64,000 bases of DNA from assembly GCA_023250675.1 (NCBI GenBank), contig JAHFAE010000001.1:31635-95634 (forward strand). The letters are read 5' to 3'. Below, one piece after another: positions 6,671 through 62,065 of this stretch. The stretch comes from Oligoflexia bacterium. GTDB lineage: Bacteria > Bdellovibrionota > Bdellovibrionia > JABDDW01. Made by a program: the position numbers and the translations under genes. A model generated the notes under the pieces. The model had not been told where the DNA came from. It was given only the letters and a program-made list of their open reading frames with translations, and did no database searches. Numbering within the stretch: the first letter of the stretch is position 1; each line of letters begins with the position of its first letter.

Positions 6671-7898
6671 TTTATTAAATTTTGATCCTGGTAATGTGAA
6701 ATCTGAAGCTGAAGATAAAATTCTTCAAGCATTAGAGTCCATCAGAAATGCTGGAGAGGCCCAGAAGCCCGATATGGGTTGGGTCGGACTCCCATTTGAA
6801 ATCAAATATATTAAAATGGTTCAAAATTGGAAGAAAACAGTCAGCAAAAAACAATTAACACTATGTGTATTAGGCATAGGCGGTAGTAGTCTCGGCGCAA
6901 AAGCAGTTTATGATTTTTTGATGCCAGATTCGAAAGTTCTGTTTTTTGACAATATTGACGGAGATTGGTTTCAGAAAAGACTAAAATCAATTGATTTTGA
7001 AGACTGCCATTTTCTGGCCATTTCGAAAAGTGGTGAGACATGTGAGACTTTGTTTCAGCTCGAACACGTTTGCCAAGAATTGAAGGCGAAAAAATTAGCA
7101 TTTGGAAATCACATTACGGTGATAACAGAGGATAAATCGAGCCGTTTAAAAAGCTTTTGTGAAGAGTTTAGTTTGAGATTTCTCCCAGTTCCCAATGATG
7201 TGGGGGGACGTTTTTCTGTCTTTTCGAATGTGGGATTGGCGCCTCTGGTTTGGGCCGGTGTTCCAGCCCGCAAATTATTTGAAGGCGCCCTTTGGGCTTC
7301 AAAACAAAAGAAACTGGTAGCTCAAATTGCCAGTTTTTATTTGAAATCTCTTTCTAGAGAAGAGTGGATCAACGTGCTCTGGATGTATGTTGAAAACTTG
7401 AGAACCTTTGGTCTTTGGTTTGAACAGCTTTGGGCTGAGAGTTTGGGCAAATCACTTGATCACTCAGGGAAGCCTGCGCCTCGTGTCAGTACACCTATGA
7501 CGTGCATTGGAGCCACTGACCAACATTCTTTGCTCCAACAATTTACGGAAGGGCCCAAAGACAAGAGTTTTCTTTTTATTCGAAGTCACGGCAGTGAAAC
7601 CTCAAAAGAAATTAAAAAACCTATTTCTCAAGCCTTGGAATTTACTAAAAATCACAGTGTTGGTAAATTGCTTGCCATTGAAGCCCAAGGTACTCAGAAA
7701 AATTTGGATGACTTAAATCTGCATACGGCACTACTTACAATAAATAAAAACGATGTCTATACCATTGGTGCTTTAATCTATCTCTTTGAACTAGTTGTTG
7801 CAACGTTGGGAGAAATATTAGAAATCAACGTTTATAACCAGCCAGGTGTGGAAGCCGTAAAAAAATTCACTTTGTCCGCTCTTGGCGGCTCGCGTTAG
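6660..7898 (+). CDS. pgi: Glucose-6-phosphate isomerase (short bacterial/archaeal-type PGI)
   Basis: SIS-domain motifs 'LGIGGSSLG', 'AISKSGETCET' and 'GGRFSVFSNVGL'. Overlaps the ACAD gene by 11 nt. Confidence 0.8.
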   Translation: MTGDLLNFDPGNVKSEAEDKILQALESIRNAGEAQKPDMGWVGLPFEIKYIKMVQNWKKTVSKKQLTLCVLGIGGSSLGAKAVYDFLMPDSKVLFFDNIDGDWFQKRLKSIDFEDCHFLAISKSGETCETLFQLEHVCQELKAKKLAFGNHITVITEDKSSRLKSFCEEFSLRFLPVPNDVGGRFSVFSNVGLAPLVWAGVPARKLFEGALWASKQKKLVAQIASFYLKSLSREEWINVLWMYVENLRTFGLWFEQLWAESLGKSLDHSGKPAPRVSTPMTCIGATDQHSLLQQFTEGPKDKSFLFIRSHGSETSKEIKKPISQALEFTKNHSVGKLLAIEAQGTQKNLDDLNLHTALLTINKNDVYTIGALIYLFELVVATLGEILEINVYNQPGVEAVKKFTLSALGGSR

Positions 7899-7943: not shown

Positions 7944-8861
7944 ATGTCGGAAGAAAGTAAGTTAGATAAAACAAGCGTCGTTGACGGAGATACACTTAAA
8001 ATTAGGTTGGACGAAGTCCGTAAACGGCCTCCCGCATTGATTTTACTCATGGGCCCCACAGGCCTAATTGGTAAACAATGGCCTATTGATAAGAACGAAA
8101 TGTACATTGGCCGAGATATTAGTTGCGATGTGCAAATCGATGAAAAAAGCCTAAGTAAAAAACACGCAAAAATCGTCAAAAGCCAAGATGAAGTGTCTAT
8201 CATTGACCAAAAATCAACAAATGGCACGGAAATCTGCGGTGTAAAGCTAGAGCCCTTCGTCCCGTTATTATTAAATAATAACGATAGTATTAAACTTGGG
8301 AACATTATTTTTAAATTTGCCGAACAAGGTGCTTTAGATTCTGTTATGACAGCCATAAATTTTGATCGTGGCAATATGGATGGCTTGACTCAAGTTCTAA
8401 ATAAGGCCGCCATTCTGCGAAACCTGGATGAGAGTTTTAAAAAGGCCCTGCTCACAGAGACCAATTTGTCCCTTATCGTTTTTGATTTAGACCACTTTAA
8501 GAAAATTAACGATGCTCATGGTCATCAATGCGGCGACTACGTGTTGAGAGAAGTTTCTAATGTGGTCAAAAATCAACTTATTCGCTCAGGTGACACTTTT
8601 GGCAGGTACGGGGGCGAAGAATTTGTCATCATTTTATACGGCAGCTCACTCCAGAGAAGTTGCGATGTGGCAGAACGTATCCGTGCGACTATCGAAAAAC
8701 ACGATTTTGTTTTTGCCGCGGAAAAAATTCCAGTAACGGTTTCTCTTGGTGTTGCGTCACTGGATGGCAATATGAAAGGTCCCGAAGCTCTGTTCGCAAA
8801 AGCTGACAAAGCAACTTATGTGAGTAAGGGCGCCGGGCGCAATCGTGTCTCCACTATTTGA
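7944..8861 (+). CDS. FHA-domain diguanylate cyclase (FHA-GGDEF, DgcB-like)
   Basis: N-terminal FHA ('YIGRDISCDVQIDEKSLSKKHAKI...STNGT'). C-terminal GGDEF with 'RYGGEEF', I-site 'RSGD' and the canonical 'GHQCGDYVL'. Confidence 0.85.
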   Translation: MSEESKLDKTSVVDGDTLKIRLDEVRKRPPALILLMGPTGLIGKQWPIDKNEMYIGRDISCDVQIDEKSLSKKHAKIVKSQDEVSIIDQKSTNGTEICGVKLEPFVPLLLNNNDSIKLGNIIFKFAEQGALDSVMTAINFDRGNMDGLTQVLNKAAILRNLDESFKKALLTETNLSLIVFDLDHFKKINDAHGHQCGDYVLREVSNVVKNQLIRSGDTFGRYGGEEFVIILYGSSLQRSCDVAERIRATIEKHDFVFAAEKIPVTVSLGVASLDGNMKGPEALFAKADKATYVSKGAGRNRVSTI

Positions 8862-23762: not shown

Positions 23763-24938
23763 ATGAAAAAGACGATAATCTCAGGGGTGATTTTCGGACT
23801 GGTGGCAGCAAATGCGATTGCAATAGCTGCTCCTCATAAAAAACTGGCTTCTTCGAAAGCTTTGCCGACTAAGTCGGAAAAAGTAGCAAAAGCAATTAAA
23901 GGTTTCAAAGTAGCTTCGGCGAAAACACTTTCGACCGTCGCAGTACAACCTAAAGTTGCAGTTCCTTCTTCACTCGCCCAAAAGGCGGCGCCATTGGCGG
24001 TTAATCCTTCAGCTTCTGGTAGAGCAAGTTTAAATTTAACTCGAGAGCATGAGAAATCGGCTCAAGGCACTACTGCAATGCCCATCAGTACTGCGGTAGC
24101 ATCAGCTAAAAAGAGCCCTTTTAGTATTAAATACCGAAGCTATAATGCTTTGAACCTCGTAGCTGTAACCAATTCAAGTGATTCTCCGGATCGCGAAGTT
24201 TGGGTTTGGGATCGATTGAATTTAACCTATAATTTCAATCCCGATATTTCTGTAAGCGTTATGCCTCAACTTTTTCACACATGGTTTGGAGATCGAAATC
24301 GAGTTCAAGACGATTCTTTTGGTAACCTAAGCCAGCCCTATTCAGCTTATCTTGGAAACACCGCCCTAATCTTTGCAGATTCAAAAATCGCAACCCTCCA
24401 AGGTGGAATTATTTGGGACGGTATGGCTCGATACGATGCGCCGACAAGTGAGTGGTCCCAAAAAGCGGGTTCTTTGGGTGAAACAAGACTTGCAACTGGG
24501 TTGTCTAAAAGTTTTGGCAGGTTTGATATTAAGGTTTCAGAAACTTATCGTTATTTCCTTCAACAATATACGACCAGTGAAGCCGAGCTTGCCGATAAGA
24601 AAACCCCAGGTTGGCCGTCTCAGAATGAAGAGTGGTACTTATATTCATTGTTAGATTTGGGCTACAATATTTCAAAAAAAGTTTCGATTTCGCTTGAAAC
24701 AGGTTTTATCAATAAAACTAAGTTAGCCGATGATAACCCTACTCACCAAAGAGATTCAGTGAAAGCCGATGAAATCGTTATGAATCCTGAAATTGCAGTG
24801 GCCATCAACGATAATTTCTCGTTGGCATTGGGTCTTTGGGAAGAACCTAATATGAGAAAGCTTAAAACCTCTGTTTACGAGCCTCTTAACCCTGTTAACG
24901 GCGGTGAAGCCTACCTCATGACTACGATTCAGTTCTAA
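23763..24938 (+). CDS. Outer-membrane beta-barrel protein (porin-like) with an Ala/Lys-rich N-terminal region
   Basis: Signal peptide, Ala-rich linker, amphipathic beta-strands and a terminal 'TTIQF'. RBS 'GGAGGG' upstream. Confidence 0.5.
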   Translation: MKKTIISGVIFGLVAANAIAIAAPHKKLASSKALPTKSEKVAKAIKGFKVASAKTLSTVAVQPKVAVPSSLAQKAAPLAVNPSASGRASLNLTREHEKSAQGTTAMPISTAVASAKKSPFSIKYRSYNALNLVAVTNSSDSPDREVWVWDRLNLTYNFNPDISVSVMPQLFHTWFGDRNRVQDDSFGNLSQPYSAYLGNTALIFADSKIATLQGGIIWDGMARYDAPTSEWSQKAGSLGETRLATGLSKSFGRFDIKVSETYRYFLQQYTTSEAELADKKTPGWPSQNEEWYLYSLLDLGYNISKKVSISLETGFINKTKLADDNPTHQRDSVKADEIVMNPEIAVAINDNFSLALGLWEEPNMRKLKTSVYEPLNPVNGGEAYLMTTIQF

Positions 24939-24970: not shown

Positions 24971-24999
24971 GGGACCCTTTTTAGGGTCCCTTTTTTTTT
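24971..24999 (+). terminator. Rho-independent terminator
   Basis: GGGACCC-TTTTTA-GGGTCCC followed by T9. Confidence 0.8.
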
Positions 25000-30819: not shown

Positions 30820-32199
30820 TTAGATTTGTTTGATGAGCTCTTTAACATTGATCTCGTATGCCCTGATACGATCGTGAAGAGTGCTTTTGGCAAGGCCAAG
30901 ATCTGCAGCAGTTTTTCTTTGATTACCGAGATTTGCAATGAGTCGGCACTTAATCATTTCTTTTTCAACTTCTTTCATAAGTGGAATTTGCGTTTGTTTT
31001 AAAAAAAGTGGAGTGAAAGCTGGTTTTTCGCTTATGGGAATATTGGGTTTATCTAGAATCACTCTTAAGTGTTCGGGCTCAATATAGGTTTTTGGAAACA
31101 GCGCCGAAGCTCGAGCAACAATATTTTTCAATTCTCTGATGTTTCCAGGCCAAGAGTAAGATCTGAGTTCTTCTATGGCTTGCACAGAAAACGCTACATG
31201 GGTTTGACGACAAAAGAAATAGAGTAGGTCATTGAAGTCCTCCATTCGATCTCGAAGGGCAGGAATTGGAATCTTTATGACATGCATTCTAAAAAAGAGA
31301 TCCGCTCTGAATTGGCCTTCATTGACCATCTTTTGAAGATCTTTATGCGTAGCCGTAATGATACGAACATTTGTTTCGACTATGCGGTCACATCCAACGG
31401 GTCTTATTTCTTTATTTTCAAGGGCTCTTAAAAGTTTTGGTTGAAGGGTAAGTGGCAAATCGCCAATTTCATCTAGAAAGAGTGTTCCATTTCTAGCTGC
31501 TTCAAAAGCGCCTTTGCGGTCGGATTGGGCACCCGTAAAGCTTCCCTTTAAATGCCCGAAGAGTTCAGACTCAACAAGAGATTCGGTGAGAGCGCTGCAG
31601 TTGACGCTTATAAAGGGCCATTTTTTTCTGTGACTTTGATCGTGAATGACTTTTGCGAGTACTTCTTTTCCACAACCACTTTCTCCTTGGAGGAAGACGG
31701 GGAGATCAGTTTTTGACAATTGACTTATGGTTCTTAATCTCAAAGTCCAATCTTTATTTCGTGAACTCAGGGGCAAATCTTCAAGTTGGGGCAATTCATT
31801 GTCGCACTCTGTTTGAAATAGAAATTCTGTATTGCCAATTTGTATATGGCTGCCATTTAAAAGCTGACCTTCGTGAATTTTTAAGCCATTGACTCTTACC
31901 CCGTTGAGGCTGTTGAGGTCTTTTAAAAAAAAACCATTTGGTCTGCGTTCAAACTTGCAATGGTATGCACTGACATGGGGATCACTAATGCAGTAATGGT
32001 TTCCGGGATCTCGACCCATCTCAATAATGCCTTCAATGGGAATTTTCAGGCCCCCAGCAATGGGTATGATATAGGCCCCTTTTTCAGAGTTAATGAGTTC
32101 ACCGACGTTAAGTGTTTGATTGATCATAGCAATCCCCTTTTCACAAATCGTGCCGGCCACAGCTCTGCTTTTATTTGATTTGAGGATTAGATGGCGCAA
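30820..32199 (-). CDS. Sigma-54-dependent transcriptional activator with an N-terminal FHA domain
   Basis: FHA ('GRDPGNHYCISDPHVSAYHCKFE...SLNGVRVNG'), AAA+ Walker A 'GESGCGKE', GAFTGA-like 'GSFTGA', C-terminal HTH. Confidence 0.85.
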   Translation of the reverse strand: MRHLILKSNKSRAVAGTICEKGIAMINQTLNVGELINSEKGAYIIPIAGGLKIPIEGIIEMGRDPGNHYCISDPHVSAYHCKFERRPNGFFLKDLNSLNGVRVNGLKIHEGQLLNGSHIQIGNTEFLFQTECDNELPQLEDLPLSSRNKDWTLRLRTISQLSKTDLPVFLQGESGCGKEVLAKVIHDQSHRKKWPFISVNCSALTESLVESELFGHLKGSFTGAQSDRKGAFEAARNGTLFLDEIGDLPLTLQPKLLRALENKEIRPVGCDRIVETNVRIITATHKDLQKMVNEGQFRADLFFRMHVIKIPIPALRDRMEDFNDLLYFFCRQTHVAFSVQAIEELRSYSWPGNIRELKNIVARASALFPKTYIEPEHLRVILDKPNIPISEKPAFTPLFLKQTQIPLMKEVEKEMIKCRLIANLGNQRKTAADLGLAKSTLHDRIRAYEINVKELIKQI

Positions 32200-51901: not shown

Positions 51902-52264
51902 ATGCAAACCAAATTTACTTTTAAACATATGGAGCCATCAGATTCTATTATCGAACACGCCCAGGAGCGAATCATGCGGCTTGACAAGTACGCTCTTCGC
52001 AAGGAAGAAAAAGTGCATTTTATATTTAGTATTCAAAAGCACGTGCAGGTTGCAGAAATTATTATTGACGCTGGGTCAGTGCATTTTACAGCTGTGGCTA
52101 AAGATGAAAAACTTCTGGCAGCTATCGATTACGCCATTGATAAGTTAGAGAGACAATTTATTAAACATAAAGAAAAAGTCCAAAACCATAAGGACTTTGA
52201 CCAAAGCAATGAAGGTATTCTTACCCAGCAAATCGCTGATATTAACAAACGAAACGCGGGCTAA
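51902..52264 (+). CDS. hpf: Ribosome hibernation promoting factor (short form)
   Basis: 'MQTKFTFKHMEPSDSIIEHAQERIMRLDKY...'. RBS 'AGAGGAGG' upstream of the trimmed start. Confidence 0.8.
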   Translation: MQTKFTFKHMEPSDSIIEHAQERIMRLDKYALRKEEKVHFIFSIQKHVQVAEIIIDAGSVHFTAVAKDEKLLAAIDYAIDKLERQFIKHKEKVQNHKDFDQSNEGILTQQIADINKRNAG

Positions 52265-52275
52265 CGAATTTTCAT

Positions 52276-52309
52276 GCAGCGAGGCTCTTTTTTGAGGGCC
52301 CCTCGCTGC
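52276..52309 (+). terminator. GC-rich hairpin downstream of hpf (putative terminator)
   Basis: GCAGCGAGG ... CCTCGCTGC inverted repeat. No strong T tract follows. Confidence 0.4.
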
Positions 52310-52488
52310 CGATTTCTAAATTAAGAAATGCCCTTTATCTGGTGCCATTCAGCCTAAAGTAGAGCATACCCTGTCGGAACTATCTTTATTTCTATACCAA
52401 GGTAAAGAATCTGAAAATTATTTTTACACTATTCTAAAAAATTCCGAAGTGTCCCCTAGAGAGTAATCATCAAGGAGGAACTTCGAAG

Positions 52489-52968
52489 ATGGAATTTTTC
52501 AGATCGTTGCAATTCTTTATATTTTCCCTGACTTTGACAATATTGTGGAGTGGTCAGAGTTATGCATTCGACTTTGGGCTTGCTTCAGATTTTCATGCCG
52601 TAAGAACCAACGACACGGCCCTCACTGCTGCCCAGGAGTTCGGTCATATCATGCTCCAGGAGTATCTCATTATGGAGAGCCAGGGGAACTCGACAACTTA
52701 CGCCCTTGCAGCCAATTTAAAAGCTACAGTCAGTGGGGGAATACGAGACGGCTTTCACGTGGGTGGTGGTATGGGCCTAAGATCCACATCGGGACGTAGA
52801 AGCGATACCTATTTCAACGGTATCTTAGGGTTTCACTTTGAACCTGCATCCCGAGTTTCAGTACATGTGGACGGAGGCATTAGCTTTGCAAACGACAACA
52901 ATAATAGTTCAGTTCAGATTGGCGGCGATTCGGCCCTCTGGGGCGTAAGTTTACTTTATCACCTTTAA
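52489..52968 (+). CDS. Small outer-membrane beta-barrel protein
   Basis: Signal peptide, short amphipathic strands, C-terminal 'VSLLYHL'. Confidence 0.45.
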   Translation: MEFFRSLQFFIFSLTLTILWSGQSYAFDFGLASDFHAVRTNDTALTAAQEFGHIMLQEYLIMESQGNSTTYALAANLKATVSGGIRDGFHVGGGMGLRSTSGRRSDTYFNGILGFHFEPASRVSVHVDGGISFANDNNNSSVQIGGDSALWGVSLLYHL

Positions 52969-53062
52969 AAGATAGACGCTCAAACACTGCGCCGTTGCGG
53001 CTTTTCTATTGACCAAATCCTGGAAATTGCAATAGATTTTACATTTCAACACAGGAGAAATC

Positions 53063-54229
53063 ATGTCCTATAGCGGGCCAAAAGATTATTACTTTACAAG
53101 CGAGTCGGTGACCGAAGGGCATCCCGACAAAGTAGCTGACCAAATCAGCGACTCGGTTTTAGATGCCATTCTGGCAAAAGACCCTAAAGCACGGGTTGCA
53201 TGTGAAACCTTAGTAACAACGGGTGTTGCATTTATTTCTGGAGAAATCACGACCAACGCTTACGTTGACTTTCCCGAAACCGTACGCAAAGTGATTAAGG
53301 GAATTGGCTACGATAATTCTGAATTGGGTTTTGACGGAAATTCTTGCTCTGTGCTGACGAGCATTGGCCGCCAGTCTCCTGATATTGCAATGGGTGTTGA
53401 TAGCAAAGATGATAAAGAGCAAGGTGCCGGCGATCAGGGAATGATGTTTGGCTACGCCATAAATGAAACTCCCGAACTGATGCCATTGACTATTAGTCTT
53501 GCTCATAAATTGACGAGACGCCTGGCCGAAGCTAGAAAAAACGGAGAGCTTAAATATTTACGACCCGATGGTAAAAGCCAAGTCACTATTGAATATAAAG
53601 GCGGCAAAGCCGTAAGGGCTGATTCGGTGGTTGTTTCCACTCAGCATAATCCCGACGTGACGCTTAATAAAATTCGCGATGATGTAATAGAAAATGTTAT
53701 TAAAAAAGCAATTCCTCCTCAATGGCTCGACAGTAAAACAAAGATCTATGTGAATCCCACAGGCCGATTTGTTGTGGGTGGACCACAAGGTGACGCTGGG
53801 TTAACGGGTCGAAAAATCATTGTTGATACTTATGGAGGCCATGGGGGCCACGGGGGCGGAGCTTTTTCTGGTAAAGATCCATCCAAAGTTGATCGCTCAG
53901 CATGCTATGCAGCCCGACATTTGGCTAAGAATGTGGTAGCCAGCGGATTAGCGGACCGATGTCTGATTCAAGTTGCTTACGCCATTGGTGTGGCTCAGCC
54001 CATGAGTGTTTTTGTCGACACTTTTGGCACAGAAAAAGTCGCTGTTGAAAAAATAAACAAAGCAGTAAAAGAATTATGGGATTTGCGGCCGGCGGCTATT
54101 ATTAAGTATTATGATTTATTAAAACCGCGGTATTTACCCACGGCGACCTACGGACATTTTGGAAGAACAGAAGAAAGTTTCACATGGGAAAAGACCGAGC
54201 GAGCCGACGCCCTAAAAAAACTCGTGTAA
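53063..54229 (+). CDS. metK: S-adenosylmethionine synthetase
   Basis: '[13 protein letters not shown]' and '[22 protein letters not shown]' (Gly-rich loop). Confidence 0.95.
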
Positions 54230-54255
54230 GTTATAAACATAAATCGGAGAAGAAA

Positions 54256-55515
54256 ATGGTACAGGATTACAAAGTCAAAGACATTTCTCTAGCTGAAGAA
54301 GGCAGACTTGACATTCAGTGGGCCGAAAGCCGCATGCCCGTTTTGATGGAATTTCGACGTGAATTCAGTAAATCAAAACCATTGGCAGGTCAGCGCATTG
54401 CCGGTTGCTTGCATGTGACCAAAGAAACCGCCGTTCTCATTGAAACATTAGAAGCGGTAGGTGCCAAAGTGAGTTGGTCGGGTTGTAATCCTCTTTCCAC
54501 CAACGACGCTGTGGCTGCGGCTTTAGCAAAGGCCGGGATAAGCATTTATGCTTGGCATGGCATGAATCGCGATGAATTTTATTGGTGCATCGAGAAAACT
54601 TTAGAATTCAAACCGACATTAACATTAGATGACGGTGCAGATTTAATTATGTCTGTTCACACAAGACGAAAAGAATTTATGGCAGATATAATTGGTGGGA
54701 CTGAAGAAACAACCACCGGTGTTCATCGCCTACGATCCATGGCTCGTGAAAAAGCATTGAAGTACCCGGTCATTGCTATCAATGATGCTGAAACTAAGTG
54801 GGATTTTGATAATGTCTACGGTACCGGCCAATCTAGTTGGGACGGTGTTATTCGAGCAACCAGTGTTTTAATTGCTGGCAAAACATTTGTGTCGGCTGGT
54901 TATGGCCATTGCGGTAAGGGCTGTTCAGAGCGCGCCAAAGGAATGGGCGCTAATGTTATCGTCACTGAAATAAAACCAACAGCGGCTTTGAAGGCCACTT
55001 TAGATGGTCACCGCGTGATGAAGATGGATGAAGCTGCAAGACACGGTGACATTTTCATTACAGCCACCGGGATGAAAGATGTTTTAGTGAAGCGACACTT
55101 TGAGATGATGAAAGATGGCGCGATCATTTGTAATACAGGCCATTACGATTGCGAAATCAATATTCCTGACCTTGAGAATTTGTCGACGAGCAAGCGCACC
55201 ATTCGCGCCAATTGCGAAGAATACACGATGAAAAATGGTCGTCGCATATTTTTGCTAGCACAAGGCCGGCTCGTCAATCTGGCCGCTGCCGAAGGTCACC
55301 CCAGCGAAGTGATGGACATGAGCTTTGCCAACCAATTCTTAGGCATGGTGAAACTCGCTAAAGATGGTAAGTCCATGGCAGCGGGCGTTCACGATATTGA
55401 TCCCGCCCAAGATCAAATGCTTGCTCTGACAAAATTGAAAACCATGGGCATGAACATCGATAAATGGACGCCCGAGCAAGCTAAGTATGCCAATGCATAT
55501 TTAGAGGGTACTTGA
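54256..55515 (+). CDS. ahcY: Adenosylhomocysteinase
   Basis: 'DYKVKDISLAEEGR', NAD-binding 'GYGHCGKG', 'NTGHYDCEI'. Start trimmed to the ATG at 54256. Confidence 0.95.
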   Translation: MVQDYKVKDISLAEEGRLDIQWAESRMPVLMEFRREFSKSKPLAGQRIAGCLHVTKETAVLIETLEAVGAKVSWSGCNPLSTNDAVAAALAKAGISIYAWHGMNRDEFYWCIEKTLEFKPTLTLDDGADLIMSVHTRRKEFMADIIGGTEETTTGVHRLRSMAREKALKYPVIAINDAETKWDFDNVYGTGQSSWDGVIRATSVLIAGKTFVSAGYGHCGKGCSERAKGMGANVIVTEIKPTAALKATLDGHRVMKMDEAARHGDIFITATGMKDVLVKRHFEMMKDGAIICNTGHYDCEINIPDLENLSTSKRTIRANCEEYTMKNGRRIFLLAQGRLVNLAAAEGHPSEVMDMSFANQFLGMVKLAKDGKSMAAGVHDIDPAQDQMLALTKLKTMGMNIDKWTPEQAKYANAYLEGT

Positions 55516-55571
55516 GGCGAAGTACGGCCATAGTATTCTGACGTACTTCACCCAAATGTCCTTAATTTAAT

Positions 55572-56144
55572 TTAATTTAATTGTTTGAGCGTTTGTTCAA
55601 GGCGATTAGCAAATTTAGTAATATCGGCAACGGCAATATTTTCATCTGAAACAACTCTTAGTCCAATCGTTCTGGCTTCTTTAAAGCGACGAAGTGGATT
55701 CAAAAAATGAACAGACTTCATCAAGTAACCGGCGGTTAATTCAGCCACACCCATACCAGGGAATCCCCAATAAAAAAGATCTGGAATTGGATCTGATGCA
55801 ATCTTACCAAGAGAAATTCCCAACGAAGCACCACCAACAAAACCCGCATAAAAACCACCCACGAGCAATCCAACATCTATTACGAGGACTCCAGCGCCGC
55901 CGTAGTAAAGGTTATGTCGAAGTGAATTTAGTTCATAAGTTGTATAAGATCGATTACCTAAAGTTCGACAGCTGTTTTGTACCGTATCACAAAGTTCAAA
56001 AGTGACTTTTTGGTCATTCGAAGTGACCTTTAGAAATCGAGTTTCTGAAGGATTTTTTGGTTTTACGTCTGCAAAACCTACATTGTTATTGAAAGAAATA
56101 ATGAAAAATAAACTGAGAAGGACCGAAATTCGTAATAGGTTCAT
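55572..56144 (-). CDS. Hypothetical secreted protein with a glycine-zipper-like hydrophobic segment
   Basis: Signal peptide and 'GGAGVLVIDVGLLVGGFYAGFVGGASLGISLG'. Confidence 0.4.
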   Translation of the reverse strand: MNLLRISVLLSLFFIISFNNNVGFADVKPKNPSETRFLKVTSNDQKVTFELCDTVQNSCRTLGNRSYTTYELNSLRHNLYYGGAGVLVIDVGLLVGGFYAGFVGGASLGISLGKIASDPIPDLFYWGFPGMGVAELTAGYLMKSVHFLNPLRRFKEARTIGLRVVSDENIAVADITKFANRLEQTLKQLN

Positions 56145-56261
56145 AATATATTCTCCTTAAAAAAGACTATGGAGAACTTTAGCAACATCTGTACCCAAGC
56201 CCAGGAGTAAGCTTGATCTACTTAACATTTGATGGCGGAAGGAGCTTCGTTAACCAGTGAA

Positions 56262-56639
56262 TTAAAGCCGACAGGAAAGACTAACGAATTTACCCTTAAC
56301 AGGTACCGACAAACTAATCGGGGCCCCGACAACGGTGCTCGCAGCTGGCAGATAAACTATGCCAGATGGATCATCCTGGCTAGGGTCGATGATAAAGCAT
56401 TGAAACTCGTCTTCCTTTCCCGGGGTTCCTTTCGGTACAACACAAACAAACTCAATTCCAGATTCCGGTTCAATGAACTTCTTCGTTGTTTCGACTGATG
56501 TATCCATGGTAAAACGTCCAATAGTTGACATGATTATAGTTGACCCGCTAGCCACATTGACCGCTTCGCAGTCATACTTAGCTCCAAATACAGAGCCACA
56601 AAAAAGTAAAGTGCCAAAAAAGAAAGCAGTAAATCGCAT
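56262..56639 (-). CDS. Small secreted Cys-containing protein
   Basis: Signal peptide 'MRFTAFFFGTLLFCGSVFG'; 125 aa. Confidence 0.4.
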   Translation of the reverse strand: MRFTAFFFGTLLFCGSVFGAKYDCEAVNVASGSTIIMSTIGRFTMDTSVETTKKFIEPESGIEFVCVVPKGTPGKEDEFQCFIIDPSQDDPSGIVYLPAASTVVGAPISLSVPVKGKFVSLSCRL

Positions 56640-56777
56640 GGTCTACCTCCTGAGAAGAATGATTCTTAGCTGGCATGGGAATCAGAGTCAATAAACCTAA
56701 TAATTTCGAACTGGAACTCGGCATCTATGACAAGGGCAGTGGTAGCTACCACTTCTCAAACATTCCCAAGAGATTCG

Positions 56778-56836
56778 GGTTTGGGGGCGGCGGCCGTGGG
56801 ACCTTCATGGGTCCCGGCCAGCCGCCCAACAAACTT
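56778..56836. repeat. GC-rich extended palindromic repeat, copy 1
   Basis: GTTTGGGGGCGGCGGCCGTGGGACC-TTCATG-GGTCCCGGCCAGCCGCCCAACAAAC, roughly 75% GC against a roughly 41% GC background. Near-identical to the copy at 58421. Confidence 0.85.
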
Positions 56837-57203
56837 TTAGTTGGGTTTTGTGGATGTCCGAGGACTATCGGCTTTGCGGTGTATTAAATCGTAGTTAAAT
56901 CGAAACAAGGAGCTCAGTGGTTAGGATTCAGTATGATGAGTGATTTTTGAATTTAGGGAAATAATTTTCATTTTCTAAAATATATTTCTTGACCGTATCC
57001 AAAATGAAAATTCGTAATCGCCTTTGAGCTTGTAGATTTTGCTGTTTAAAGATCCTCATACTTGAGGTGAAAGGTTATTTTTAAGTTTTTGATTTTTCAG
57101 AAGCCATTTATTTTCTCGCCCAGCCGTTGTCCAATACATGCGAAAAATGCTCTCGTAAATAGTGATGTTATACTCGGCCCTGTCTTTTAAAAAAGGAGTT
57201 GGT

Positions 57204-57674
57204 ATGAAATCACCCATGAATGTAATAATCGAAAAAAATAACAAAGATTTTTCTATAAGCTACCCCCTTCATAACAAAGCCCTCGAATTGGCAAAAGATT
57301 TTAAACGTCTAGAAATTGAACTCGTTGATATTATTCAAAAGATCGATGCTGCGAAAATATTTCGCAAACTCGGCTTTGCTAGTCTCTACGAATATGTAAA
57401 CCAAGGTCTCGGGTTATCAGAATCTGTAAGTTATTCACTTATTAATGTTTCAAGAAAATCAATGGCAATCCCAGAGCTGAAATCTGCCATTCAGCAGGGT
57501 AGTTTGAGCATTTCTCAGGCCAAGCGCATCACATCAGTTATCACAAACGTTAACGCGTCGACCCTTATTGCAAAAGCCAAAGTCATGACACAAAAAGAAA
57601 TTGAAAAAGAAGTGGCAAAAATTAATCCTAAGGCAGCCGTTCCTGAGAGGGCATCGGTATATCAGCGAAGATAG
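57204..57674 (+). CDS. Hypothetical protein resembling the N-terminal (DUF222-like) region of HNH-endonuclease family proteins
   Basis: 156 aa, 'FRKLGFASLYEYVNQGLGLSESVSYSLINVSR'. RBS 'GGAG' 8 nt upstream of the trimmed ATG. Confidence 0.45.
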   Translation: MKSPMNVIIEKNNKDFSISYPLHNKALELAKDFKRLEIELVDIIQKIDAAKIFRKLGFASLYEYVNQGLGLSESVSYSLINVSRKSMAIPELKSAIQQGSLSISQAKRITSVITNVNASTLIAKAKVMTQKEIEKEVAKINPKAAVPERASVYQRR

Positions 57675-57708
57675 AGTTGAACTTCGCCTTTCACTAAAAG
57701 GAGAGATT

Positions 57709-58254
57709 ATGAAAAACCTTAGACGCATTCAGGATCTGGAATGTCAACGAACCAAAACGACTTGTGATTTAGAAAAAACCTTGGAAGTCATAATCAATGA
57801 CTATATTCAAAAGCACGACGCCGTTACAAAAAGTGAAAAAGTCTTACATAAACTATCCTTAAGAACTGTAAATTCAAACGCTAACTCCAGGGCCAATACC
57901 AAAGCCGATGACAATGACAAAGACAATAATAGCAGCCAAACTCAAATTCAAAAAACCAAAATCGCTGAGAATTCTTCTAAAACTAATAATAACCACGAAG
58001 CCTCCCATCCCAAAATTAATCAGAGAGTAGCAATTTCTTCAGAAATCAAACACCAAGTGAACCAGAGAGATCAGGGCCAGTGTTGCTTTAGAAATTCTCA
58101 AGGGACAAGATGCATAAACAGGCGTTGGCTTGACGTTCATCATCGCAAACCCATTGCTAAAGGCGGCGACAATTCGTTAGAAAATCTCGTTACCCTTTGT
58201 AAGGCCCATCATCGATTACAACATGAATTCGCACCAGGATCAGTCTCCGGATAG
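57709..58254 (+). CDS. HNH endonuclease
   Basis: 'CCFRNSQGTRC...LDVHHRKPIAKGGDNSLENLVTLCKAHH' HNH/zinc-finger motif. Strong RBS 'AAAGGAGAG' upstream of the ATG at 57709. The ORF-track start at 57601 is in a different frame from the upstream gene. Confidence 0.75.
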   Translation: MKNLRRIQDLECQRTKTTCDLEKTLEVIINDYIQKHDAVTKSEKVLHKLSLRTVNSNANSRANTKADDNDKDNNSSQTQIQKTKIAENSSKTNNNHEASHPKINQRVAISSEIKHQVNQRDQGQCCFRNSQGTRCINRRWLDVHHRKPIAKGGDNSLENLVTLCKAHHRLQHEFAPGSVSG

Positions 58255-58420
58255 TCTCAAAGATTGTTAGCGCTTACTGCTATTTATATTTAGAGATTTA
58301 TTTGCAGACTTGATCGTCGACCTTAGGAACATAAGAACATCTAACCTCTACGGTAAGATATTCTTTTCATAAAAAAACACTTGAACCCAGAAAGATCTTT
58401 AATTCATACGCCAAATCTAA

Positions 58421-58476
58421 GTTGGGGGCGGCGGCCGTGGGACCTTTCAGGGGTCCCGGCCAGCCGCCCAACCAAC
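58421..58476. repeat. GC-rich extended palindromic repeat, copy 2
   Basis: GTTGGGGGCGGCGGCCGTGGGACC-TTTCAG-GGGTCCCGGCCAGCCGCCCAACCAAC, in the same orientation as copy 1. Confidence 0.85.
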
Positions 58477-58583
58477 AATTCGCGAGGGGTTGAAAACAGT
58501 TTGTTGGGCCGCGAGCGTTTAAAATTGAATTCCAAATTAATTCCGGCTATCACTTCTTAAACAATTCCATGGAGGACCAAATA

Positions 58584-59147
58584 ATGAATAAAATTCTAGC
58601 CGCAATCGCAATCATGCTTTCCGGTGCCCTCGCCCAAGCCCACACCATTCAAGAAGTCTGCAGTTTAATTGCAAGTTACAATAGTCAAAATGGAATCGAA
58701 TGCGTCAAAGCCATTTCAACAGCAAATTATTTTGACGTTGACGCCACAGAATTTTGTTACGTGGTTTCAACCTCAAGTTCAACCAACGGTGTTGCATGCG
58801 TAAAATCAATTTCTGGCAATCGATTTCAGACAGATGCCGTGGCCGTCTGTACTTTGATAAACTCTTATAATTCAGCCAACGGTTTGGCCTGCATCGCGGT
58901 CATTGCAAATAAACAGTATCTCAATGGCACCGCAGAGCTTTGCAAAAACATCGCTGCCTCAAGTTCGACAAATGGCCTCATTTGCATGAGAGATTCAGGA
59001 GTACCAGCCGGTAAAACGTGCCCCACCCTCAAAGAAACTTCAGATTCTATTGGTGCCGCCCTTGACGAGTTCTATAATGGCAAACCAAGAACCGCCGTAA
59101 AAATGCTTCAGGGCTTACAAGATCAAATCAACACCTGCTTGCAGTAA
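58584..59147 (+). CDS. Secreted protein with four tandem Cys-containing repeats of about 31 residues
   Basis: Signal peptide 'MNKILAAIAIMLSGALAQA'. Repeats 'CSLIASYNSQNGIECVKAIS...', 'CYVVSTSSSTNGVACVKSIS...', 'CTLINSYNSANGLACIAVIA...', 'CKNIAASSSTNGLICMRD'. Confidence 0.5.
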   Translation: MNKILAAIAIMLSGALAQAHTIQEVCSLIASYNSQNGIECVKAISTANYFDVDATEFCYVVSTSSSTNGVACVKSISGNRFQTDAVAVCTLINSYNSANGLACIAVIANKQYLNGTAELCKNIAASSSTNGLICMRDSGVPAGKTCPTLKETSDSIGAALDEFYNGKPRTAVKMLQGLQDQINTCLQ

Positions 59148-59308
59148 CGAACTTTAAATTTACTGGCAACTTGGGACCTCAAAAGGGCCTAAGTTAGCCA
59201 GGGACTTAATTGTCGGCGACTTCACTCATTGATCTTTTTGAATTTGACCAAGTAGAGGCTACGAAAAAATTGATGCCGGCATAAAATTCAAGCTTTGCAT
59301 TATACATA

Positions 59309-59548
59309 TTGCAACATATTGCGACATATAGTATACGTCGACTTATGGCTAGCAAGAAGATGACTACGACGGTCTACATCACAGAAGAACAGAACCAAAT
59401 GCTAAAAGAACTCAATCGCCGAACAAAAGTACCCGTGGCTGAATTTATTCGAGAGGGAATCGATTTAGTTATCGATAAGCATCGATCAAAGTTACCAGGG
59501 CAATTGGATCTCACTCGTGACGTCTCCCACGACAATCCCAAGTCTTAA
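59309..59548 (+). CDS. Ribbon-helix-helix (CopG/Arc/MetJ-like) small DNA-binding protein
   Basis: '[37 protein letters not shown]'. Probable true start at M13 (59345). The 3' end overlaps the GTG start of lepA. Confidence 0.45.
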
Positions 59549-61337
59549 CCAAATTCGAAATTTTTCAATTATTGCCCATATTGACCACGGCAAAAGCACT
59601 TTGGCTGATCGGCTTATTGAAACCACCGGCGCTTTAAGTCAAAGGGAAATGAAAGACCAATTTCTCGACAACATGGAGCTAGAACGTGAGCGAGGAATCA
59701 CCATCAAGGCCCAGACAGTTAGGCTCCATTACAAAGCCAAATCGGGTCAAACCTATCAACTCAATCTCATCGATACTCCCGGCCACGTAGATTTTAGCTA
59801 CGAAGTTAGTCGTTCTTTAGCAGCTTGTGAAGGTGCCATTCTCGTTGTGGATGCCTCTCAAGGTGTTGAAGCGCAAACCTTAGCTAATGTCTATATGGCT
59901 ATTGATAATAATTTAGCGATTATTCCCGTTCTCAACAAAATAGACCTTCCCGCTGCAGACCCCGACGGAGTGAAACAACAAATCGAAGATACAATTGGCC
60001 TAGATGCCAGCAGCGCCATCTACGCAAGTGCGAAGGAAAAATTAGGCATAGAAGATATTTTAGAGGCGGTTGTTGCCATTGTTCCGCCCCCCAAAGGCGA
60101 TGCCAGTAAATCTGTAAAAGCTCTCATATTTGACAGCTGGTTTGACCCCTATCAAGGAGTTGTGATTTTAGTTCGCATGGTGGATGGAATAATCAAACCC
60201 CAAATGAAAATCAGGCTCATGAGTGTAGGTAAAGATTTTGAAGTCCTCAAAGTTGGCGCTTTCATGCCCTACGCTCAAGAGCTCGACGAGCTTAATCCAG
60301 GGGAAGTAGGTTTTATTATTGCGGGAATAAAAGACGTCCATGACACCAAAATCGGCGACACTGTGACCGATGCCAAAAAACCCGCCACCGAAATGCTTAA
60401 AGGATTTAAAATTGTAAAACCCATGGTGTTTAGTGGAATTTTTCCGGTAGATGGCCCCGATTACGAAAATTTGAGAGACGCTCTAGATAAACTTGCGCTC
60501 AATGACTCAAGTTTTTCCTTCGAACCTGAAACAAGTATTGCTCTTGGTTTTGGTTATCGTTGTGGATTTCTCGGACTTTTGCATATGGAAATTGTACAGG
60601 AACGTCTTGAAAGAGAATATGGCCTAAATCTCATTACAACAGCTCCAAGTGTTGTGTATCGTGTGACAAAAACCAATGGGGAAGTCAGTGAACTTGAAAA
60701 TCCAGCTCTTCTTCCCCCTCCCACTCATATTGCAAAATTAGAAGAACCCATTATTACTTGTACGATTCACGCTCCCACTGATTTTATCGGGACTATTTTA
60801 AAACTCTGTGAAGAAAAACGGGGAGTACAGAAAAAACTCGAATACGTCACTGCAACTAAAGCCATTATCGTCTACGAATTGCCCCTTAACGAGGTAGTTT
60901 TAGATTTTTATGACAAACTTAAAAGCCTTTCAAAGGGCTATGCATCTCTCGACTATGAGTTTTTAGAATTTAGAGAAAGTAAGCTCGTCAAACTTGATAT
61001 TCTTATCAATACTGAGCCTGTGGATGCGCTCTCTCTCATTGTTCACGAAAGTAAAGCTTACTCTCGAGGCAGAAAGCTCACAGAAAAACTTAAAGAGCTT
61101 CTTACCCGGCAACAATTTCAAGTGGCAATTCAAGCTGCTATTGGAGCTAAAATTATTGCTCGGGAAACACTTGGCGCTCTGCGTAAAGATGTTACAGCGA
61201 AATGTTATGGCGGAGATATCACCCGTAAGCGTAAGCTCTTAGAAAAGCAAAAAGAGGGCAAAAAACGAATGAAACAAGTGGGAAGTGTTGATATTCCACA
61301 AGAAGCGTTTTTGGCCATTTTGAAAGTGGAGGACTAA
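59517..61337 (+). CDS. lepA: Elongation factor 4 (LepA)
   Basis: '[21 protein letters not shown]', 'DTPGHVDF', 'NKIDLP', LepA-specific C-terminal domain. GTG start. Confidence 0.95.
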
Positions 61338-62065
61338 TGACGAACGACAAACGTGGCACCTGGCTAAACAGTATGGGATCACTGGCTCTTGCAGTCGGTG
61401 TGGCGTTAGCGATCCGATGGTGCCTGATCGAAGCGTATGTCATTCCTTCGGGCAGTATGCTTCCATCACTTTTGATACAAGATCACATTTTCGTAAACAA
61501 ACTTGTCTATGGAATACGCGTCCCCTTTTCAAAAGAGTGGCTTATCAAATTTGGATCACCAGCTAAAGGCGAAGTAATAGTTTTTAAATATCCCGAAGAT
61601 GAATCGACTTTTTTCATTAAACGAGTCATTGGGACTCCTGGTGACAAACTCAGTTGGGATGGGCGAAAGCTGACGGTGAATGGTACAGACGTGCCCACTG
61701 GAGATAATACTCAAAAAGACTATTTTATGTCTATATTGAGCGATCGGGACATGTCTGGTTCAAAAATATCATATGACGTATTAGATGAAAATCTCAATGG
61801 CCATCCTCACCCAACTCTCATAAAAAAAGATGCTGTTCATGCTTTGGTGCAAAACCAGATTATTCCCGAGAATCAACTTTTTGTCATGGGGGATAACCGG
61901 GACAACTCCAATGACAGCCGTTACTGGGGATTCGTTCCGATGGAAAATATTTTAGGAAGGGCTATGTTTGTTTGGCTCAGCTGTGATGAAACTTTACCGG
62001 GAATAAGCTTCATCTGTAACCCTTTGACTATTAGGGTGAAGCGTTTCTTCCACTATGTCAGATAA
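61337..62065 (+). CDS. lepB: Signal peptidase I
   Basis: Catalytic 'PSGSMLPSL', 'KRVIGTPGD', 'GDNRDNSNDSRYWGFV'. Confidence 0.9.
   Translation: MTNDKRGTWLNSMGSLALAVGVALAIRWCLIEAYVIPSGSMLPSLLIQDHIFVNKLVYGIRVPFSKEWLIKFGSPAKGEVIVFKYPEDESTFFIKRVIGTPGDKLSWDGRKLTVNGTDVPTGDNTQKDYFMSILSDRDMSGSKISYDVLDENLNGHPHPTLIKKDAVHALVQNQIIPENQLFVMGDNRDNSNDSRYWGFVPMENILGRAMFVWLSCDETLPGISFICNPLTIRVKRFFHYVR

Follow-up and report, generated by a model that had tools for sequence, protein, structure and literature searches.

What are the two near-identical, GC-rich palindromes that stand on either side of a nuclease gene in the AT-rich genome of an uncultured, predatory-type Oligoflexia bacterium (Bdellovibrionota), and do they belong to that gene? 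The locus is contained in a stretch of 64,000 nucleotides (nt) of contig JAHFAE010000001.1 (GenBank assembly GCA_023250675.1, forward-strand positions 31,635 to 95,634), which we refer to as the window and to which all coordinates relate unless another contig is named. An earlier sequence-only reading had noticed the palindromes and offered three options: a generic element of the repetitive extragenic palindromic (REP) or miniature inverted-repeat transposable element (MITE) type, the termini of a small mobile or homing module, or strong bidirectional terminators. We tentatively interpret the two copies, PAL-A upstream and PAL-B downstream of the gene, as hairpin-forming functional boundary repeats of a selfish nuclease cassette of approximately 1.7 kilobases (kb), located in a variable island between ahcY and lepA; among the explanations weighed below this is the best, and we put it forward as possible, short of probable.

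Two hairpin repeats with a common orientation

PAL-A (56779-56834, plus strand) and PAL-B (58421-58476, same orientation) are 56-nt GC-rich imperfect palindromes, defined by repeat search, folding and a covariance model, that are 96% identical over 51 nt when a 1-nt gap is allowed. They are the sole outstanding direct-repeat family in the repeat search, and each of their 21-nt arms occurs exactly twice in the window at up to three mismatches and not at all in 100 shuffles. The basic description given by the sequence-only reading was thus confirmed: two near-identical repeats share one orientation, their GC content of 71% and 75% (given there as about 75%) stands against 41.9% for the window (given there as about 41% for the genome), and both copies fold as extended palindromes, in the form of imperfect, bulged hairpins of 22-24 base pairs (bp) each.

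From the outside in, the 5-bp outer stem of PAL-A (GTTTG/CAAAC) is followed by a 1x2 internal loop and by an 11-bp stem in which one A is bulged; a GT bulge then leads to an apical stem of 6-7 bp (GGGACC/GGTCCC) closed by the loop TTCAT. The outer stem of PAL-B is GTTGG/CCAAC, which is a compensated change with respect to PAL-A, and its loop, TTTCAGG, is different too. Folding energies of -43 to -47 kcal/mol as RNA (z -4.2 to -5.8) and -25 kcal/mol as DNA (z -5.5) indicate that the hairpins are very stable on either strand. When the whole 64 kb was folded in sliding segments of 70 nt, the palindromes reached approximately -44 kcal/mol and no other segment fell below -31 kcal/mol.

A covariance model was built from PAL-A and PAL-B and run over the window with filters off. 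For the plus strand it scored PAL-A at 91.4 and PAL-B at 88.4 bits, against 23.9 and 27.9 bits for the minus strand, and it found no further copy. The difference between 88-91 bits on one strand and 24-28 bits on the other shows that these near-palindromes have a definable orientation, and that it is common to both copies. We also considered whether the repeats could be an assembly artefact and rejected this, as independent ENA and Logan assemblies have contigs that contain PAL-A or PAL-B in their interior, with identical sequence.

The repeats flank a single frameshifted gene

According to the sequence-only reading, exactly two genes, one DUF222-like and one encoding an HNH endonuclease, lie between the repeats. 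We find instead a single gene (57204-58254, plus strand), whose product joins a predicted ParB/Noc-type helix-turn-helix (HTH) domain to an HNH nuclease through a low-complexity linker; an extra T at 57654 splits the gene into two open reading frames (ORFs), 57204-57674 and 57601-58254. Deletion of one T at this position (GCA-T-CGG) gives a frame of 349 codons. Single-chain homologues of 287-390 amino acids cover 93-98% of the conceptual fusion of both ORFs, and their alignment is continuous across the junction ('...VPERARYISE(D/T)RVELRLSLK...').

In three independent assemblies (one Logan run and two MEGAHIT samples from ENA), the contigs of this organism all break inside the HNH gene; they end at 57417 and 57633 and start again at 57860 and 57931, and their flanks of 2-11 kb are 99.99-100% identical to the window. 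The frameshift position falls in the stretch that lacks independent contig coverage; the gene may have been inactivated by a recent mutation, or the consensus may be wrong where the region is heterogeneous. The contig breaks fit a repeated or heterogeneous gene, and within-population heterogeneity or interference from a paralogue seems to be confined to the HNH gene.

The HNH assignment itself was borne out. Pfam HNH (PF01844) matched in all 14 family members compared (best E 9.5e-8), the zinc and catalytic residues are intact, and the His, Asn and Cys are invariant in the alignment. Profile matches to the McrA, IscB and Cas8-HNH structures fall on this same domain, and the NCBIfam IscB match is likewise limited to it (22-36 bits against a cutoff of 175). 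The label DUF222-like found no support at the Pfam threshold, since in the window ORF DUF222 (PF02720) reached only 12.1 bits (E = 0.12; cutoff 24.4) and was matched in none of the 14 members at E <= 0.1; a remote homology is possible.

An AlphaFold2 model of the intact homologue P0001 has a mean predicted local distance difference test score (pLDDT) of 79, with residues 10-130 above 90 and a disordered linker at residues 217-263. Foldseek searches of the PDB related the N-terminal domain to ParB/Noc DNA-binding domains with a probability of approximately 1 and E-values of 0.04-0.3, the Noc DNA-binding domain 6y93 giving a target-normalised template-modelling (TM) score of 0.68 and a root-mean-square deviation of 3.1 Å, and related the C-terminus to McrA and Cas8-HNH. 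HTH_ParB (PF17762) is matched in the distant member P0025 at 23.1 bits, marginally above the cutoff of 22.6, and more weakly in closer members. We therefore predict, with moderate confidence, that the N-terminal domain is a ParB-type HTH-like domain. ParB/Noc DNA-binding domains bind palindromic sites.

The protein belongs to a large HTH-HNH family without a characterised member or a demonstrated function: a profile search of 1.84 billion representatives gave 2,562 clusters (50% identity) at E <= 1e-30, of which the top 150 are all full-length. No family match was obtained by tblastn in plasmid and phage collections, the family search in viral contigs returned generic HNH-domain matches only, and the same was true of PADLOC and PHROGs, which gave no defence-system membership. 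Two homologues in NCBI and ENA assemblies, P0001 and P0002, are 84-87% identical. The ratio of non-synonymous to synonymous divergence (dN/dS) reaches up to 0.56 in the linker, compared with 0.09-0.13 in the domains. The HTH-HNH linker is of low complexity, and in some homologues (P0008, P0009, P0012, P0019) it carries short peptide repeats in variable number, for example KTQ..LNH and ENLENL (alignment columns 235-345).

The palindrome accompanies the gene at a second locus

P0001 is encoded on an ENA contig, L003, and is 84% identical to the window gene in amino acids and 82% in nucleotides. The first letters of this contig, 455 nt ahead of the start codon and at the position that corresponds to the upstream copy, belong to the same palindrome (TGGGACC TTTCAGGAG GGTCCCGGCCAGCCGCCCAACCAAC), which the covariance model placed in the same orientation as in the window, with a score of 46.7 bits and a truncation at the 5' end. 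Downstream of the palindrome there are approximately 27 nt of partial homology and approximately 100 nt that cannot be aligned, followed by a leader of 240 nt.

The palindrome of L003 is identical to PAL-B at 39 of 40 positions and is closer to PAL-B than to PAL-A. Between the two genes, on the other hand, the synonymous divergence (dS) is 0.63, with 42% of synonymous sites differing, and dN/dS is 0.14, a substitution pattern which indicates that the protein is under purifying selection. That the palindrome has remained almost unchanged despite this divergence puts its conservation far above what neutral evolution would give and argues for strong constraint or concerted evolution, and its presence upstream of the gene at both loci, in the same orientation, argues that it is inherited with the gene. 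Judged from these sequence comparisons, which at DNA level cover 64 kb of the genome, one partial second locus and one distant homologue, the link between repeat and gene looks real.

Organization and genomic setting of the cassette

The window has a single HNH gene, which PAL-A precedes by 370 nt and PAL-B follows after 166 nt, so that the cassette of approximately 1.7 kb reads in the order palindrome, variable spacer, conserved leader, HTH-HNH gene, 3' untranslated region (UTR) and palindrome. The inner flank beside PAL-A (56835-56864, plus strand) is approximately 70% conserved with L003 and includes, at 56840-56846, the sequence GTTGGGT, an inverted match to the CCCAAC at the palindrome end. 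The spacer that follows (56865-56958) cannot be aligned with L003, although the segments on both sides of it can. An AT-rich non-coding leader (56959-57197) is approximately 87% identical to L003 (182-430 of that contig), which is above the value for the coding sequence (82%). The 3' untranslated stretch between the stop codon and PAL-B (58255-58420) is conserved neither with L003 nor with L004, a contig that carries a distant homologue, and the spacer, 3' UTR and outer flanks gave no other match in the window or the compared loci.

The leader is probably a promoter or operator region. No conserved ORF was found in it on either strand when the window was compared with L003, and it lacks an RNA-structure signal (z -0.2 and +0.3). 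A structured-RNA reading of the leader was dropped, as there is no excess folding energy on either strand and the two sequences show a single compensated pair. By eye, a candidate extended -10 element, TGTTATACT, can be recognised at 57166-57174 (plus strand); it is identical in L003 and was not called by a promoter scan. A 15-nt motif of the leader, TTCTAAAAT(A/T)TATTT, also occurs upstream of the distant homologue in L004 (E 0.022).

In composition, the cassette interior (56837-58420) is an AT-rich outlier, with 37.4% GC against 41.9 +/- 1.9%, which places it in the lowest 0.2% of windows of equal size. The surrounding core genes of the window are exbBD, lptC, lptB, rpoN, hpf, metK and ahcY, followed by lepA, lepB and pyrB, and the closest named LepA homologues, at 85-86% identity, are annotated as 'MAG: Oligoflexia bacterium' (metagenome-assembled genome, MAG). 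We compared the locus with two syntenic relatives. In GCA_016715815.1 the gene order is the same and lepA begins 21 nt after ahcY, and in GCA_034439615.1 other genes occupy the gap between ahcY and lepA. Neither relative has an HNH gene or, by folding and covariance model over approximately 61 kb of syntenic DNA, a PAL-like hairpin at the site. The segment, which the sequence-only reading had put at 1.6 kb, is therefore absent from both, and window positions 55516-59516 represent a lineage-specific variable island that contains two small minus-strand genes, the cassette, a gene for a secreted-type protein of 187 amino acids and a ribbon-helix-helix (RHH) gene. No clean empty site was seen, since the relatives differ across the whole island and not just in the cassette; at 85-86% LepA identity the HNH gene is already missing.

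Possible roles of the palindromes

Of the options proposed earlier, the mobile or homing module fits the evidence best, in view of the conserved palindrome linked to the gene, the absence of the segment in relatives and the composition of the interior. If the palindromes are functional boundaries, the HTH domain would give the HNH nuclease specificity for a palindromic or hairpin/cruciform site, which most economically would be PAL itself. Once a PAL-type site is nicked or broken, it could be repaired by recombination against a PAL-flanked copy or, alternatively, recombination between two palindromes could integrate or excise the segment. By either route the gene would be copied together with its repeats in a homing-like manner, and the hairpins would persist because recognition or recombination takes place at them; the window copy would have lost its activity recently or would carry an assembly error at one base. 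The HNH superfamily includes enzymes that act on branched or nicked DNA. It is this property, together with the preference of ParB-type domains for palindromes and the fact that 56-bp direct repeats are a substrate for recombination, that leads us to suggest such targeting and copying.

Several observations weigh against this interpretation and against its mobility part. Within the 64 kb we saw no empty site, solo palindrome, circular junction or second copy of the cassette from the same genome. We know of no strand-transfer chemistry for HNH nucleases, and any mobility would thus have to use host recombination. The L003 contig stops 152 nt past the stop codon, and in the window PAL-B begins only 166 nt past it; moreover, the relation of L003 to the window locus could be one of orthology between sister species and not of transposition. 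The family member P0007 (51% amino acid identity), encoded on L004, has no flanking palindrome, which means that the repeats are not a general attribute of the family and that PAL is specific to a narrow sub-lineage. Finally, the connection between the protein and PAL is one that we infer from sequence and a structural model, and the ParB resemblance comes with weak structural E-values (0.04-0.3) despite its high Foldseek probability.

A second explanation, which we regard as doubtful but worth weighing, is that the palindromes are part of the cassette and serve expression only, by insulating the promoters of divergent neighbours or stabilising the transcript, with no role in mobility; they could be factor-dependent or U-tract-independent terminators, or hairpins that protect RNA ends. 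Hairpins of such stability on both strands would suit this role, as would the position of PAL-B, 166 nt past the stop codon of the HNH gene and 108 nt before the next start, which is a sensible place for an insulator. The conservation of stems while loops vary is what is seen in structural RNA or DNA elements, and linkage to the gene at a second locus would be equally expected. Nevertheless, neither hairpin is followed by a U-tract on the plus strand, where the stems lead into CAACAAACTTTTAG and CAACCAACAATTCG, or on the minus strand, where they lead into CCAAACCCGAAT and CAACTTAGATTT, and a terminator consensus scan of 52000-62000 called neither palindrome. The genome's own terminators, in contrast, consist of a short stem and a T-run, as in the canonical intrinsic terminator at 24971-24999, after the ORF 23763-24938 (GGGACCC-TTTTTA-GGGTCCC, a 7-8 bp stem followed by T9). 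PAL-A lies in a divergent intergenic region, upstream of both the nuclease gene and a gene for a protein of 125 amino acids, where no annotated transcription unit ends, and the genes on both sides of the cassette point away from it. In addition, no other gene in the 64 kb uses such a hairpin, and a bidirectional terminator would need neither the strict orientation nor the conserved bulges that are reflected in the difference between 88-91 and 24-28 bits. On these grounds the bidirectional terminators of the sequence-only reading are not supported, and the features of the sequence indicate that the palindromes are not ordinary terminators. The terminator at 24971-24999 does have the same apical stem motif as the palindromes, with a proper U-tract.

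The palindromes could also be a dispersed REP- or MITE-like family, specific to the lineage and moved in trans, for example by a Y1 transposase of the REP-associated tyrosine transposase (RAYT) or IS200 type, that is found beside the HNH gene only because both share a variable island. We consider this unlikely. REPs and bacterial interspersed mosaic elements (BIMEs) are similar to PAL in size, GC-richness within an AT-rich genome, bulged imperfect hairpin and extragenic location, and a homogenised repeat family could account for the L003 copy being closer to PAL-B than to PAL-A. A partial third copy, GTTTGTTGGGCCGC, is located 22 nt outside PAL-B (58499-58512, minus strand; 13 of 14 positions match the reverse complement of the right end of PAL-A) and may be the remnant of an older or target-site palindrome, and one of the relatives, GCA_016715815.1, encodes a Y1 transposase. 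Against a dispersed family, the window holds only two full copies, both flanking its single HNH gene, and no Y1 transposase gene, and the one other copy known, that of L003, precedes an HNH homologue too and shares both the orientation and a homologous inner flank; none was found in the approximately 61 kb of syntenic DNA of the relatives. The exact 21-mer of the right arm, GGTCCCGGCCAGCCGCCCAAC, had a single match in 185,579 species genomes, among which the source genome is not included, and this was a non-palindromic chance match in an Acidobacteriota MAG. The same 21-mer had four matches in JGI metagenomes, all in GC-rich coding sequence of glycosidase type, and none in IMG/VR viral contigs, where an 18-mer of the left arm gave two chance matches in GC-rich contigs. 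A six-frame search of the palindrome peptide against 5.8 billion proteins returned nothing at E <= 10, which is a weak negative given that gene callers rarely call such ORFs. Within the reach of these searches, a generic REP/MITE element is unsupported.

It is very unlikely that the direct repeats are attL/attR-type products of a recombinase encoded elsewhere, either as an integron-like, attC-bounded cassette (cluster of attC sites lacking integron integrases, CALIN) or as a target-duplicating island: same-orientation 56-nt imperfect palindromes with extrahelical bases around one gene do reproduce the geometry of integron cassettes, and GTTGGGY and RCCCAAC resemble the attC core GTTRRRY / RYYYAAC, but the polarity is reversed (attC 5'-RYYYAAC...GTTRRRY-3', PAL 5'-GTTGGGG...GCCCAAC-3'), there is neither an integrase nor a cassette array in the window, where the ORF map has housekeeping genes only, the long conserved leader of the cassette is unlike promoterless integron cassettes, and the window has no tRNA gene and no Rfam match at the palindromes or leader (region at E <= 10, whole window at gathering thresholds), including matches of the HEARO and omega-RNA types.

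Returning to the palindromes as boundary repeats, the linkage and the constraint are real and unusual, and the evidence for a new mobility mechanism is circumstantial. A bolder version, in which the locus would be the first of a new class of hairpin-bounded mobile elements, whose HTH-guided HNH nuclease recognises its own terminal palindromes and is copied by break-induced repair, appears improbable to us at present. If it were true, the element would be a functional analogue of REP/RAYT or IS200/IS605 with a different nuclease (not HUH/Y1, DDE, serine or tyrosine), and it could explain the role of the large HTH-HNH family and possibly that of REP13E12. The locus offers a concrete, testable candidate for the DNA site of the nuclease and for the way in which such cassettes might move. 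Should the link prove purely regulatory, or PAL a local REP family, what is left is a modest annotation point, namely one frameshifted selfish nuclease gene in a variable island.

Relation to known systems

By gene content, the closest system is REP13E12 of Mycobacterium tuberculosis, the best-known relative of the family, which comprises multi-copy DUF222/HNH units, often with two ORFs, that are hotspots of gene conversion, cause assembly trouble and have no defined function (PMC13061034, PMC10589994). The cassette resembles REP13E12 in several respects: the unit is approximately 1.3-1.7 kb in size, its sole product has an N-terminal helical domain and a C-terminal HNH nuclease, it is often annotated as two adjacent ORFs, and it is suspected to be mobile; moreover, the assembly trouble encountered there has a counterpart in the contig breaks inside the gene here. 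The two differ in host, here an AT-rich Oligoflexia bacterium and not an actinobacterium, and in the DUF222 match, which stays below threshold here; no prophage att site is evident, and one copy is seen in 64 kb. To our knowledge, REP13E12 has not been described as bounded by GC-rich hairpin direct repeats.

By geometry, REP/RAYT and IS200/IS605 are closest. REP/RAYT systems (REPtrons) likewise have a single nuclease gene directly flanked by GC-rich imperfect extragenic palindromes, in which stems and bulges are kept. Their transposase, however, is of the HUH/Y1 type (PF01797), which Pfam does not find here, in place of an HNH nuclease with an HTH domain; their flanking copies are inverted, whereas those of the cassette are direct, as the strand difference in covariance score shows; and the 56-nt palindrome is longer than typical REPs and has no dispersed copies in 64 kb. 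IS200/IS605 elements and their palindrome-associated transposable element (PATE) derivatives bracket their genes with similar imperfect hairpins, one at the left and one at the right end, that share their orientation on one strand. The cassette shares these same-orientation imperfect end hairpins and the strand asymmetry, a likeness of geometry only, and differs in having no TnpA (Y1) and no TnpB/IscB, in giving no HEARO/omega-RNA match and in its stems, which are about twice as long.

The gene also recalls HNH homing genes in that it is a small selfish nuclease gene between host genes, patchy among relatives and prone to inactivation, and it combines an intact HNH core with a separate, predicted DNA-binding module, as expected of free-standing HNH homing endonucleases. 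Unlike such genes, it has no evident target site, intron, intein or phage context, its family is absent from phage and plasmid collections, and its N-domain is ParB-HTH-like and not the usual module. GC-rich hairpins that stand out in an AT-rich genome are also known from the mobile GC-rich palindromic clusters of AT-rich fungal mitochondrial genomes (PMC8811140). As regards integrons, the cassette differs from attC-bounded units in its core-site polarity, the lack of integrase and array, and its own conserved leader. Integron cassettes are delimited by imperfect palindromes with extrahelical bases, which stand in direct orientation around a single ORF. Taken together, the locus is best classed as a probable selfish HNH nuclease cassette and not as a member of the REP13E12, REP/RAYT, IS200/IS605 or integron groups.

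Neighbouring genes and minor features

The gene to the left of the cassette (56262-56639, minus strand) encodes 125 amino acids and the gene to the right (58584-59147, plus strand) encodes a Cys-repeat protein of secreted type with 187 amino acids. By inspection, both products have a signal-peptide-like N-terminus, and neither matches a known family. Upstream of the start codon, the former gene has PAL-A at a distance of 139 nt and the latter PAL-B at 108 nt; as both genes are transcribed away from the cassette, each palindrome occupies the 5' region of a neighbour. A perfect 16-bp palindrome, AGTGGTAGCTACCACT (56738-56753), lies 25 nt outside PAL-A between the divergent genes, in their promoter region. 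It was not retained as a special feature, because the 64 kb contain four palindromes of 16 bp or more and it is not statistically unusual.

On L004 (3214-12422), P0007 is encoded near hicAB, two tRNA-Leu genes (7312-7398 and 8476-8562) and a tyrosine integrase, a neighbourhood that suggests the context of an integrative island. The Y1 transposase gene of GCA_016715815.1 (PF01797, IS200-type; contig L052, 2849-3397) lies between exbD and lptC together with an ORF of 480 amino acids, and no strong hairpins were found around it; in the window the corresponding gap measures only 230 nt. The small RHH_3 gene at 59309-59548 overlaps the start of lepA; it is also present directly upstream of lepA in one relative (L053, 9749-9970) and absent in another. 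The 187-amino-acid protein contains, at 58771-59050, three to four tandem repeats of 93 nt (31 amino acids) with a conserved Cys/Asn-Gly motif.

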